Assembly (NCBI GenBank): GCA_029258835.1
Contig: JAPDJY010000049.1
Span: 1-60,738, forward strand
Direction of reading: 5' to 3'
Origin: Thermoproteota archaeon
GTDB taxonomy: Archaea > Asgardarchaeota > Jordiarchaeia > Jordiarchaeales > Freyrarchaeaceae
DNA: 60,738 nt
In this document: piece after piece, positions 21,943 through 35,107 of the stretch
Layout of the letters: each line of letters begins with the position of its first letter
How positions within the stretch are numbered: the stretch's first letter is position 1
Made by a program: the position numbers and the translations under genes
Notes under the pieces: generated by a model
Database searches by the model: none
What the model was told of the DNA's origin: nothing
The model's input: the letters and a program-made list of their open reading frames with translations, nothing else

Positions 21943-23361
21943 TTAACTATATCTTTTCTGTACCCTGAGTATTTTCCACCCTGCTATTCCCGCCTGCTGA
22001 ACCTCCTCGGGAGTTAGAAGTTCAACCTCGCCTGCTGGCACACCCAGCTTCTCCTCTATCTTCGCCTTCACCTTCTCCTTTAACGCTTCCGGATCCTTAA
22101 CCTTGTCATGCATGTAACCTGTCCTCACAGGTAAGTTGTCCTGAGTTTTCGGGTGGGTTTTAACTATCTGGCATGCCATCGCCCCGCTTGCCCCTATCTC
22201 AGGTATCTCGTAAAGTACTTCTTCAACCATCTGTGGAAGTATGATCTTACCCTTAACGTTAACCCTGTCTGACTCCCTACCCAGAATCGTTATCGACAGG
22301 TGTGTCGTACCGCACACGCACTGCTCATAGTCTATCTTAGTGAAGTCCTCCATCCTCCACCTAACGTGGGGGACAGCCACGTTGTGGAGCGGAGTTATAA
22401 CCCAGTCGCCAACCTCCTCTGGCGGTATCGGCTCGTTGGTCTCCATGTCAACGTGCTCTATCAAGTGTATGTCCTCCCACACGTGTGTTATGGCTCCTTC
22501 ACCGTCGAGGCATCCTATTAGCGGAACCATCGTGTCGCCGAGAACCGACATGTTCAGGATAGCTTTAAACTTGAACTCGTTCTTCAGCATGTCCCTTGTA
22601 GGCGTTGTGAGGGCTGCCCCAGCCCATCCGCCTATCATGTTGTCGAAGCCAAGGTCGTCGACGGGGTCCAACCCCTTAGACTTCATGTAGCCGAGGAAGC
22701 TCCACGCCAGAAAAGCCGGGAAGTATATCGCCTTAATCTCACCTTTAAAGTCCTCTAAGTACTGTATCATCTTGTCCATGAACATTGGTAGAGGAAACAC
22801 ATCGTTCCACAAAAGGGTTATGCCTATCTCTTGCAGGTCATCTGTTGACCTCATTACTTCGAACCCGCCGTGGAATCTTCCAGCGTTAGCTAGGAACATG
22901 TCGCCAGGACGTAGCTGATACATTGACCATACAGTCCTCATAGTAATCTCACGTATCCACCTCCAATCGTCCTTGGCAAACCCCCAATACGTCGACCTGC
23001 CGGTTGTCCCCGTGCTAACGTAAACATCTCTCAGCCTTTCAAAGGGCGTAGCGAGGACGCCGTAGAATGGGTCACCGGTCCTCTCACGGTACTCCCTCAA
23101 GTCATCCTTTAAGGTTAGAGGAACCTTCCTCTCCCAGTCGCTCCAAGTCTTAATGTCGTCTGGGCTAACCTCGGCTTCCTTAAGCTTTTCATGGTAAAGC
23201 TTCGTGTTCTCGTACGCATATCTAAGCTGCCTCACTGCAAGTTTAAACTGTAACTCTCTCAACTCCCCCCTGTCAATGGTTTCCATCTTCCTATTCCAAA
23301 ACTTCTCCTCCCTCACAGGAAGGGTAGAGGCATCTTTAAATATGTCCTCCTCAGTCGCCAA
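21943..23361 (-). CDS. Phenylacetate-CoA ligase (PaaK)-like adenylate-forming enzyme
   Basis: STGTTGR, HVWEDIHLIE, VRWRMED, CVCG, GRESDRVNVKG. Confidence 0.8.
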   Translation of the reverse strand: MATEEDIFKDASTLPVREEKFWNRKMETIDRGELRELQFKLAVRQLRYAYENTKLYHEKLKEAEVSPDDIKTWSDWERKVPLTLKDDLREYRERTGDPFYGVLATPFERLRDVYVSTGTTGRSTYWGFAKDDWRWIREITMRTVWSMYQLRPGDMFLANAGRFHGGFEVMRSTDDLQEIGITLLWNDVFPLPMFMDKMIQYLEDFKGEIKAIYFPAFLAWSFLGYMKSKGLDPVDDLGFDNMIGGWAGAALTTPTRDMLKNEFKFKAILNMSVLGDTMVPLIGCLDGEGAITHVWEDIHLIEHVDMETNEPIPPEEVGDWVITPLHNVAVPHVRWRMEDFTKIDYEQCVCGTTHLSITILGRESDRVNVKGKIILPQMVEEVLYEIPEIGASGAMACQIVKTHPKTQDNLPVRTGYMHDKVKDPEALKEKVKAKIEEKLGVPAGEVELLTPEEVQQAGIAGWKILRVQKRYS

Positions 23362-32759: not shown

Positions 32760-33908
32760 TTATCTTCTCCTAATGTAGAGTATTATGGCGACGCCTGCGA
32801 TCACTACTACCCCAGCAGCCCCTATCAGCATGAGGTTATTTGCGCCTTGAGACGAGGCCAGCGTTACGATGTAGTAGTACTGGAACGCTAGAACAGATTC
32901 GGGAGGCACCTCTCCTCCTCCCGTAGTTAGAACTGCGAAGTACGGGTCGAATGACACTTCATCGCTTCCAAAGTAGTCCACGCAGAGGTACAGTGCAACC
33001 CACCCGTCGGTCACGTTAAACCCTGAAGTCACGTTAATGACGGATTCTCCACTGGCATTGCTCTTAACAGCGTAATTGAACCATCTGAACGTTGCCTTTA
33101 TCTCCTGCGCGTTATCTGCTGTGACCAGTCCTATTTCGCTTTCATCCTCTGAAACCTTTGGGACAAGACCTGATACGTTGTCCATGTCGCTGAAGGTGCT
33201 TCCGTTCGCAAGCCTAAACCTATACTCGTACTGTGCTTCGACCGGTTCACACTTCAAAAGGAACACTAAGGCCAGTTTACTATTACCACTGTTATCCACC
33301 CAGCCATAATGTTTCACAACCAAATCTATTTTAACCGCTTTCAGCCCTGGCACCACTGCTGAGAACTCCCCGTGAGGACCCGTAACGTTCGTGTCTTTAA
33401 AGTAAATGTGGATGTAAAGCTCTAACTGTATCGCCGGGCTATTCCCTACGAGCTTAATCCGTATCTCGTCGTCTGTCTTAGCTATTCCGTCGAGATTCCA
33501 TGTTATCTCCGATAGCTTAATGTCGTTCTTAATCTCGCTGCTCTCCGGGTCTGGTATCCCGTTCCCATTGCTGTCAACGAACTCTATTATATGTGCTGTG
33601 TGAATGTTGACTGCTACACCTAGGTTCGTAGGTGTCACCGTCCAGTTCACAAGGTTCTTCAGAGTGTCCCCCTCTAGGTCAGCAAACTTCATTTCGAAGT
33701 AATCTGAAATTATTTTGCCTTTGTAGATGTCTTCCATGCTGGGAATTTTAAACTTAGCTGACGCTTGGCTCTGGTTCTTGACGCCTAAAGTTGTTGTTGC
33801 GGCTGCTGGGGCTGCCAGCATTGCCATCAGCAGGGCTACTAGTGCTATCGCCGCCGTAGCCGTGGTCGCTGCAGCCAGTTTCTTTCCGCTAAACATTTTC
33901 TTCACCAT
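32760..33908 (-). CDS. Secreted/surface (glyco)protein with a C-terminal membrane anchor
   Basis: Signal peptide, many N-x-S/T sequons, DSNGNGIPD loop, C-terminal TM + RRR. Confidence 0.82.
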   Translation of the reverse strand: MVKKMFSGKKLAAATTATAAIALVALLMAMLAAPAAATTTLGVKNQSQASAKFKIPSMEDIYKGKIISDYFEMKFADLEGDTLKNLVNWTVTPTNLGVAVNIHTAHIIEFVDSNGNGIPDPESSEIKNDIKLSEITWNLDGIAKTDDEIRIKLVGNSPAIQLELYIHIYFKDTNVTGPHGEFSAVVPGLKAVKIDLVVKHYGWVDNSGNSKLALVFLLKCEPVEAQYEYRFRLANGSTFSDMDNVSGLVPKVSEDESEIGLVTADNAQEIKATFRWFNYAVKSNASGESVINVTSGFNVTDGWVALYLCVDYFGSDEVSFDPYFAVLTTGGGEVPPESVLAFQYYYIVTLASSQGANNLMLIGAAGVVVIAGVAIILYIRRR

Positions 33909-34002
33909 GATTTAATTAAAAAAATATATATTATTTAAATCTTTTCTTTAAACTTTTCATGGTCCGAAATCAAAAACGAAGGAAAACAGTGCAAATTAAG
34001 AA

Positions 34003-34032
34003 TAAACGTTTATAACCGTTTAAAACTGTTCA
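34003..34032. promoter_or_regulatory. Three tandem 10-bp direct repeats, candidate operator
   Basis: taaacgttta-taaccgttta-aaactgttca, about 100 bp upstream of the surface-protein start. Confidence 0.4.
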
Positions 34033-34352
34033 AAAGCAAGAAAAAAGAAAGAAAATGTTAAGCACTATCATGTGATCAATTCATTCACGCATTCTCAACA
34101 CTTCCATTCAGTTTAAGATGCTATCCCCCTTAAATCCCTCTTCTCACCCTGAAGAATCTCCCGACTCAAACTACGTACGTTTCTTTCTCAAACCCTTCTC
34201 TCCACTCTTTTTTTGTTAAAGTCTCCCTTAACGTTTAACCGTCAACTTTGGTTTTAACCGCTTATTGGCTCATTAAATAGAACCCGCCAGAACCCCATAC
34301 ACTTTCTGAACTCAACCTCTTTAGGGTGCTTACGCTCCCTTACAGAATGTTG

Positions 34353-34597
34353 CTAAGAAAGCTTACATTTATTCATGGGATGAATTGGGGAGGTGGTGGG
34401 AAAGTTTAAATGCAAGTATTTGATATGCGTGTTTAGGCGAGTCGCCTAACAGACTTTAATGGAGCGATGAATCTGCTCAGGCGGGCTACGGGGCTTGCCT
34501 CCGTAGCAGGGGCTGCCTTGACACAGCCCGAACCGGGTAGGATGAAGCCAAGCCGACAAACCCAGAATCCCCCGACTCTAGTCGTAGGGAGTGTCAA
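34353..34597 (+). mobile_element. Miniature non-autonomous IS200/IS605 derivative: degenerate left end, promoter, tnpB 3' remnant/omegaRNA, right end
   Basis: 34452 onward reads DFNGAMNLLRRA..GAALTQP (TnpB C-terminus); right-end hairpin gaatcccccgactctagtcgtagggagtgTCAA; aaagtttaaat TATA; left boundary less certain. Confidence 0.75.
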
Positions 34598-34840
34598 TTG
34601 GCCTACTTCGTTCCTCTAACCCGTGTGAAGGTGGCTTAATTAGGTGTGCACCGTTAGGAGGTGGTGGCTGAGCTGACGTTAACGCCGCAGTCAAGATCAA
34701 CAGCGGTGTGGGGAGGACCGGCTATTAGTTGCGATCTGGGTGTTCGGAGTATGCCTTAAACTTCTAAGTTTTTCTGAAAATCAGAGTTTTTCAGAAAAAA
34801 TTTAAATATTCCGAAATCCCTTAACCTCCAAGGGATCGCT

Positions 34841-35107
34841 ATGACCTCCATAGCTAAAGTTGGGAAAAGAGGGGAAGTTGTTCTGAAGAAGGCTGAAAGG
34901 GAGGCTGCTGGGATAAAGGCAGGAGATACCGTCGTGATCTTTGGCCGCCCGGGGGAAGTGATCATCAGAAAGATTCCATCGCTTGAAGATGTTCTTTCTG
35001 CGCCGCCGAAGGTTAAGATCTCAGTCGGCGACCTCGCTAGGCTTAGAGGAAAGGTACGTGAAGAGCTGGAAGAGAGGCTGGCTTATGAGGGTTCTACTGG
35101 ACACTAG
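34841..35107 (+). CDS. AbrB/MazE-type antitoxin
   Basis: KVGKRGEVVL...R.AAGIK.GD.V. Confidence 0.85.
   Translation: MTSIAKVGKRGEVVLKKAEREAAGIKAGDTVVIFGRPGEVIIRKIPSLEDVLSAPPKVKISVGDLARLRGKVREELEERLAYEGSTGH

Follow-up and report, generated by a model that had tools for sequence, protein, structure and literature searches.

The kind of element described here has already been published (PMC3119063, PMC10055086, PMC10691335), and current knowledge of it is unchanged by the present locus. In Haloquadratum walsbyi, protein-less elements known as PATEs derive from IS605/IS1341-type transposons by core deletion (Dyall-Smith et al. 2011, PMC3119063). PATE-like elements of Geobacillus stearothermophilus encode omegaRNAs needing TnpB in trans, and a homing role was assigned to TnpB (Meers et al. 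2023, PMC10055086); likewise, the standalone omegaRNAs of the OMEGA systems act in trans (Altae-Tran et al. 2021, summarised in PMC10691335). With respect to the ends, the reference is IS608 of Helicobacter pylori, which inserts 3' of TTAC and whose GL sequence, AAAG, pairs with TTAC (PMC3201880). In archaea, the sotRNAs of Halobacterium are transcripts overlapping, in sense orientation, the 3' end of tnpB genes of the IS1341 type (Gomes-Filho et al. 2015, PMC4615843).

Judged from its sequence, the segment 34344-34597 of the window (the whole analysed DNA stretch of 60,738 nucleotides) measures 254 bp and derives, by internal deletion, from a tnpB-only IS200/IS605 element whose ends resemble those of IS608. 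We consider it reasonably probable that this segment is a non-autonomous, protein-less IS1341-type derivative of the PATE or standalone omegaRNA kind, being structurally intact and most likely idle. It adds a well-delimited guide-RNA-only IS200/IS605 derivative in a Jordarchaeales-like Asgard archaeon, defined by its exact ends, its target motif and the position of its putative promoter. Among named relatives, a Jordarchaeales MAG is nearest to this host, with 79% identity of the RimK-like protein.

The comparison with the Haloquadratum PATEs reveals several common traits: both are too short to encode a transposase, lack terminal inverted repeats and target duplications, carry near-terminal palindromes and originate from the core deletion of a tnpB-bearing element, with some PATEs keeping a C-terminal coding remnant (e.g., HqIRS71). 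In contrast to them, the window element resides in an Asgard (Jordarchaeales-like) host, its ends follow the IS608 code (TTAC/TCAA), its deletion does not lie between two palindromes, and a presumed promoter as well as ~145 nt of the gene tail were kept, whereas many haloarchaeal PATEs are 52-bp forms consisting of the termini only. With the PATE-like elements of Geobacillus and the standalone omegaRNAs it shares the status of a protein-less IS200/IS605 derivative, the combination of left end (LE), right end (RE) and scaffold, and a guide represented by the flank beside the RE; like them, it would depend on TnpA and TnpB in trans. However, the omegaRNAs of the Geobacillus and OMEGA systems were shown to be expressed or trans-active, while the window element is known from its sequence and its cognate enzymes look defective. 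Its putative LE-derived promoter of the archaeal BRE/TATA type is a further difference. The likeness to IS608 comprises the TTAC target, a left cleavage point 18-19 nt 5' of the LE hairpin foot (19 nt in IS608), the AAAG 5' of this foot, an RE ending with TCAA 3' of a hairpin, and the asymmetry of the ends. Unlike IS608, the parent is a tnpB-only element without tnpA, there is no sequence similarity aside from these motifs, and the distance from TCAA to the RE hairpin foot is 7 nt in the window element versus 10 nt in IS608. As in the case of the sotRNAs, a non-coding RNA overlapping the 3' end of an archaeal tnpB is predicted; the sotRNAs, however, arise from intact genes and were detected experimentally, whereas the gene body is lost in the window element.

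A search of the genome (2.72 Mb, 91 contigs) with window positions 34300-34780 showed this stretch to be a composite of two repeats, with the parental copies sitting on four other contigs of the same genome. The left block (34337-34446) matches C88:1676-1787 with 93% and C2:144017-144091 with 85% identity. The right block (34458-34597) matches C77:5902-5763 with 91%, C5:80485-80347 with 85% and C42 with 73% identity. As the left part matches C88 and the right part C77 and C5 at these levels, the composite nature is beyond chance, and the route proposed in the earlier note, i.e., tracing the parental tnpB by right-end identity, led to C77 and C5. On C88, the left block continues straight into an ATG with an ORF (MKVKKTIKAKILELRKG...) that weakly matches OrfB_IS605; the right block of C77 and C5 forms the terminus of an ORF truncated by the contig end. 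A protein-coding IS of the same family is homologous at both ends (LE, 93% to C88; RE part, 91% to C77). Since the N-terminal type and the right-end type are linked on one strand ~1.3 kb apart in two further genomes (G036:C15 and G110:C242), the parent can be regarded as one tnpB-only element of ~1.4 kb.

The boundaries were derived from the comparison of the copies. TTAC followed by 8 nt and GCTAAGA is common to five aligned copies (window, C88, C2, C41, and G022:C1), placing the element start at 34344, right after TTAC (34340-34343). At the right end, similarity among the copies ends exactly at GTGTCAA (34591-34597), and the flank is different in every copy (C77, C5, G022, G036, and others). 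A target duplication is absent from the flanks, and TTAC lies immediately 5' of the LE in five out of five copies. The earlier note had placed the element at 34353 to 34625 with a length of ~245 bp; these values have to be replaced by 34344, 34597 and 254 bp, as 34598-34625 are flanking DNA in guide position. Its description of the parts in between could be reproduced: the left-end sequence (GCTAAGAAAGC at 34352-34362, GATGAAT at 34379-34385), the G-rich tract followed by AAAGTTTAAAT at 34401-34411, the perfect 17-nt palindrome TTAGGCGAGTCGCCTAA at 34433-34449, the last ~48 codons of tnpB at 34452-34595 (87.5% identity over 48 aa to the C-terminus at the C77 contig end), and the right-end hairpin ending with TCAA at 34594-34597. 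The same applies to the loss of coding capacity, with the longest ORFs inside the element spanning 50 and 54 aa and a Pfam search of the 56-aa read-through of the tnpB tail giving no match, as well as to the overall anatomy, in which an LE promoter region is joined to the tnpB 3' end and RE. The 3' block fits a conserved covarying RNA fold, with the flank in guide position. The features are as follows.

34340-34343, + strand: TTAC target-adjacent motif, part of the flank and not of the element; 8 nt 5' of GCTAAGA in the five copies named above and found in most left ends of related families.
34344-34446, + strand: LE of the parental tnpB-only IS; 93% identity to C88:1676-1787, 85% to the LE of the C2 mini element.
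34358-34361, + strand: AAAG, read in the sequence where IS608 has its left guide tetranucleotide; it lies 5' of the foot of the LE hairpin and 18-19 nt from the cleavage point.
34363-34379, + strand: degenerate LE hairpin, recognised by comparison with the left ends of C88, C2, C41 and G008/G009.
34400-34411, + strand: BRE/TATA-like box GAAAG TTTAAAT, presumed former tnpB promoter; position kept in window, C88, C41 and G022, with the tnpB ATG of full-length copies following 36 nt further on.
34433-34449, + strand: GC palindrome TTAGGCGAGTCGCCTAA, perfect over 17 nt, at the predicted transcription start (~34434-34437).
34447-34451, + strand: internal deletion junction, 5' UTR joined to the RuvC-III Asp codon; full-length copies hold ~1.1 kb of tnpB here.
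34452-34595, + strand: remnant of the last 48 tnpB codons, non-coding here (tblastn, 87.5% over 48 aa to the C77 tail).
34459-34597, + strand: omegaRNA-like scaffold, full-length match to covariance model R1 (152.4 bits, model positions 1-140).
34487-34505, + strand: hairpin A (TACGGGG / CTCCGTA), inside the former coding region; 7/7 pairs compensatory in 34 sequences, 5/7 in the 9-sequence MAFFT alignment.
34518-34524, + strand: TTGACAC, 5' strand of a long-range closing helix, pairing with GTGTCAA at 34591-34597; TTGATA/TATCAA in C42, four pairs with double changes.
34526-34538, + strand: small hairpin GCCCG-AAC-CGGGT, then the near-invariant AGGATGAAGC (34539-34548); from alignment and consensus fold.
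34565-34590, + strand: GAAT and RE hairpin; DNA fold the same as in C77, stem covarying in C5, G036, G110 and G022.
34591-34597, + strand: RE terminus GTGTCAA (TCAA cleavage motif), 3' strand of the closing helix; homology stops here.
34598-34617, + strand: flank in guide position (TTGGCCTACTTCGTTCCTCT); single occurrence in the genome at <=2 mismatches.

Concerning the origin of this arrangement, one internal deletion would have removed ~1.1 kb of tnpB and joined the left end, in which a 5' GC hairpin follows the presumed tnpB promoter, to the last ~145 nt of tnpB plus the right end; the retained 3' block would represent the guide-RNA (omegaRNA) scaffold of the family. The junction (GGCGAGTCGCC, 2-3 nt, CAGA..) is also present in the mini element G022:C1, which is 71% identical overall to the window element and belongs to a 1.4-Mb genome from another family of the phylum. 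The copy on C42 has the identical 3' breakpoint (..CAGACTAT) but, owing to the erosion of its left end, no palindrome. All three copies sit at unrelated sites. Based on the junction common to the window and G022:C1, we conclude that the deletion occurred once and that the mini element then moved, meaning that one mini-element lineage, defined by a single deletion junction, is present in two distant Asgard lineages. Other mini elements combining a left end with an R1-type scaffold show different junctions (C2 as well as L051, L057, L069, L081, and L082 of G008/G009). In total, at least four mini-element lineages with different junctions were found, all retaining LE and scaffold.

Two of these other mini elements are located in the genome of the window itself. 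The one at C2:144017-144266 (L060) has an LE 85% identical to that of the window and a far more divergent scaffold (41 bits to R1), and the element terminates on the right with AGCTCAC, as in full-length elements of G032 and G026. This copy suggests that subfamilies exchange left ends and guide-RNA modules. The other one, at C42:11950-12125 (L059), has an eroded left end devoid of the hairpin and of GGCGAGTCGCC and lies ~130-150 nt from an apparent tRNA gene on the opposite strand.

In order to describe the scaffold, nine right-end regions were aligned by MAFFT, RNAalifold gave a consensus of five helices, and the covariance model R1 was built from that alignment. Within these nine sequences, compensatory changes occur in 10 of 29 pairs, and 92% are paired in comparison to 34-48% in slid controls. 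R1 has five matches in the genome of the window (C77, window, C5, C42, and the C2 mini element); among 151 Asgard genomes sampled from the phylum, 12 contain relatives. In the resulting alignment of 34 sequences, 90.6% of cells are paired, double changes affect 20 of 29 pairs and 0 of 500 shuffles scored as high; these covariation figures lean towards structure and are somewhat inflated, since the alignment was fitted to R1. All 140 model positions are matched by the window copy, with 152.4 bits versus 158.9 bits for the full-length copy C77. Among the R1 matches with at least 1 kb upstream, just four (L065, L066, L067, and L071) adjoin an ORF of >350 aa ending in TnpB Zn-ribbon/RuvC-III motifs; the ORFs of L065 and L067, regarded as intact, measure 402 and 357 aa.

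Around hairpin A the protein sequence is not conserved, yet all seven pairs covary, which is hard to attribute to TnpA binding or a coding constraint; at its distance from the end, TnpA would not need this hairpin. The closing helix TTGACAC/GTGTCAA ends beside the guide position. The RE hairpin is intact in the window copy and covaries among copies, and GAAT, the GR sequence of IS608, stands just 5' of it. Four substitutions of the scaffold are specific to the window copy, all of them at unpaired positions (P ~0.12, underpowered at n=4); four changes without damage could reflect ongoing use, with numbers too small to tell. The near-invariant AGGATGAAGC (34539-34548) has 7 out of 10 positions invariant across the nine aligned copies, and its GATGAA is found again in the left end (GATGAAT); a protein-binding motif or one resembling a K-turn is conceivable. 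The alternative of a host ncRNA gene was rejected, with no Rfam family matching at gathering thresholds in the whole window or at permissive thresholds in 34000-35000, and no tRNA reported by ARAGORN. For annotation purposes, the covariance-supported scaffold model could aid the recognition of TnpB guide RNAs in Asgard genomes.

The alignment of five copies revealed a common layout of the left end: TTAC, 8 nt, the motif G-C/G-T/C-A/G-AGA-A/T-AGC, a hairpin, GA(T/G)GAAT, a G-rich tract, an A-rich tract with TTTAAAT, ~22 nt, GGCGAGTCGCC, and finally the tnpB ATG in full-length copies or the deletion junction in mini elements. In C88 and C2 the LE hairpin is intact, reading TTATGAA-TTTA/TTCA-TTCATGA/G between AAAGC and GATGAAT; covarying stems occupy this position in C41, where the hairpin is intact as well, and in the G008/G009 elements. 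In the window copy, 2 nt are missing and one substitution (one base pair) is found in the left arm. An alternative 6-bp hairpin (ATTCAT/ATGAAT) is still present, so that mobility may not be lost. The GAAAG-TTTAAAT box is a putative promoter; a genome-wide positional test of the TATA motif, relying on naive start calls, gave a broad weak enrichment only and added no support to this assignment. The core of the palindrome, GGCGAGTCGCC (window 34436-34446), is shared without change by C88, C41 and the Odin-type mini element G022:C1; L067, a full-length element from another family, has the near-identical GGGCGAGTCGC in front of its ATG. Being placed between the TATA-like box and the tnpB ATG, GGCGAGTCGCC may form a 5' hairpin or serve these tnpB genes as an operator.

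If the element were functional, transcription would start near 34435, ~25 nt past the TATA-like box, and would run through the scaffold into the flank, yielding an RNA of ~180 nt with TTGGCCTACTTCG... as its 3' 16-20 nt. A family TnpB made elsewhere would bind this RNA, leading to cleavage of TTAC plus that flank sequence. This combination would correspond to the empty donor site after excision by TnpA, with a joint reading ...CTCCCTTAC|TTGGCCTACTTCG...; since the target would be the empty donor site, cutting it would bring the element back through recombination, a route demonstrated for bacterial IS605 elements. Transcription, its start site and the binding by TnpB are all predicted steps. 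Rather than a working guide-RNA gene, the copy in the window is most likely a relic, young and structurally intact, given the damage to its homologous LE hairpin and the apparent defects of the cognate tnpB and tnpA in the assembly.

The defects of the cognate genes are manifold. The tnpB 5' half on C88 (~2300-2312) carries a +1 frameshift by an extra A in an A-run (A5), and the one on C41 (~23255-23265) a +1 frameshift by an extra G in a G-run (G5) at a different site. Both contigs stop at the same base within tnpB, and the middle ~330 nt of the gene are missing from the assembly. The 3' parts on C77 (5902-5913) and C5 (80485-80496) encode A-N-Y-N-G-A versus A-D-Y-N-G-A in relatives, i.e., Asn in place of the catalytic Asp of RuvC-III, with six relatives carrying D in the RuvC-III motif N-x-D-x-N-x-A-x-N-I. 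The Asn letters of C77 and C5 are repeated in loose ends of two independent DNA runs, X1 and X2. As to tnpA, the genome contains two matches of the Y1 type, both of them broken (stops or N-terminal frameshift). In the current assembly, which is incomplete at these repeats, there is no catalytically competent cognate TnpB; as the assembly breaks at every full-length copy (completeness 94.7%), an intact tnpB or tnpA may exist unassembled. The window mini element itself retains the Asp codon. An RHH-tnpB at the window end was tried as a candidate effector and rejected, the family N-terminal query having no match on C15.

The foremost competing explanation, which we regard as possible though doubtful, is an active promoter-driven guide-RNA gene now loading a compatible TnpB in trans and providing an extra guide for the retention or homing of this copy. 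The complete scaffold with an R1 score near that of full-length copies points in this direction, as do the conservation of the TATA-like box and the 5' palindrome and the absence of a T-run terminator between the predicted start (~34435) and the guide. Furthermore, independent mini lineages retain ~140 nt of the 3' end, far above the needs of TnpA, the genome contains 27 matches to the TnpB zinc ribbon, and standalone omegaRNAs of other systems function in trans (PMC10691335, PMC10055086). However, C77 and C5, the only places in this genome where the scaffold adjoins a tnpB tail, both have Asn at the RuvC-III Asp, both matching tnpB 5' halves are frameshifted, and the remaining genomic TnpBs are at most ~42% identical to the cognate tnpB, none of them with an R1-type scaffold. 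In addition, because of the damaged LE hairpin and the lack of an intact tnpA, the excised site as the only possible target would never arise. The guide-RNA cassette put forward in the earlier note stands in terms of its anatomy; loading in trans is plausible by analogy, weakened by the defective state of the assembled cognate tnpB pieces and by a guide that targets its own flank only.

Expression data and target searches bear on this alternative as well. In the metatranscriptome run X19 (30 M letters, contigs only), no RNA contig lies over the element, whereas the neighbouring genes (vapB included) are covered at 33400-33593 and 34797-34971, the only positions with RNA contigs, each with 100% identity. 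As this run is tiny and consists of contigs only, the lack of element RNA is weak evidence against activity, neither showing nor excluding a transcript. The 20-mer in guide position, compared with its own genome at <=2 mismatches, matched its own flank only, with no TTAC-flanked match elsewhere. Against IMG/VR, ten 16-mer matches were obtained, none with TTAC and none extending, a number close to chance by estimate; the other targets in genome and virome for which the earlier note had suggested a search did not emerge. DNA contigs of three vent/marine metagenomes (X1-X3) carry the element at this site, with loose ends leading into full-length copies, and the empty-site allele also suggested there was not found in these runs, no joint skipping the element. 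Metagenome contig L090, the sole locus, begins at 34613. The orthologous regions of the sister genera G003 and G001 are too diverged for recognising an empty site (score z ~3, driven by one 16-mer), and the Jordarchaeales contig L091 is not syntenic at this site.

A far less likely explanation is an exapted pair, in which an immobilised guide-RNA gene supplies a TnpB without nuclease activity (Asp to Asn) that acts, like bacterial TldR, as an RNA-guided regulator binding DNA. It would account for the Asp-to-Asn change in both assembled 3' ends, for the damage of the LE hairpin next to an intact scaffold, and for the 15/16 match to the window LE that a sister genus has in its orthologous intergenic region. 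Against it, those tnpB copies are frameshifted, still lie within elements with ends and break the assembly as repeats; moreover, the genome has no TTAC-flanked guide match, and the sister-genus site has no scaffold. It is equally a long shot that an immobilised promoter-plus-scaffold copy together with an Asn-bearing family TnpB marks an early domestication into an RNA-guided DNA-binding regulator in an Asgard archaeon; if true, the LE-like 16-mer at the orthologous site would hint at long retention. An effect on the neighbouring genes with the RNA fold being incidental, by an outward LE promoter reading towards vapBC or by an altered divergent promoter region, would suit the location of the element in a 933-bp divergent intergenic region, pointing at vapB 244 nt downstream with no terminator before the T-run at ~34770, but is highly improbable, given that vapB has its own TATA box and a palindromic operator-like site (34768-34811), that this site is also present in G003 without a recognisable element copy (only a 16-nt left-end-like match), and that the vapB RNA contig begins at 34797 and not upstream. 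We retain the idle, structurally intact relic as the preferred reading.

Several observations were made in the surroundings of the element. The sister-genus match mentioned above is located in L035 (G003:C24) at 2493-2508, where GCTAAGAAAGTTTACA agrees with the window left end in 15 out of 16 positions, with CA after TTA in both. It is collinear with the flanks in the orthologous intergenic region, and a scaffold is not detectable there; the 16-mer is either an old decayed shared insertion or an independent insertion. Upstream of the element, the intergenic region 34050-34340 has a strong C-over-G skew on the + strand, with the GC skew going down to -0.63. Downstream, ~165 nt of GC-rich (54-58%) single-copy non-coding DNA (34598-34765) separate the element from the vapB promoter. 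The possibility of 34598-34770 being part of the element was rejected: fold z-scores were +0.4 and +0.6, and blastn and tblastx of the genome and relatives gave no match, i.e., neither a paralogue nor a relative. In a variant strain of run X3, 34598-34765 are present with several substitutions and 1-nt deletions. Next to it, the palindrome TTTTTCTGAAAA / TTTTCAGAAAAA (34768-34811) abuts the TTTAAATA box upstream of vapB, which encodes an AbrB/SpoVT-like antitoxin and is followed by a PIN gene. A similar palindrome lies across the TATA box in G003, and the palindrome at 34768-34811 is probably the VapB operator.
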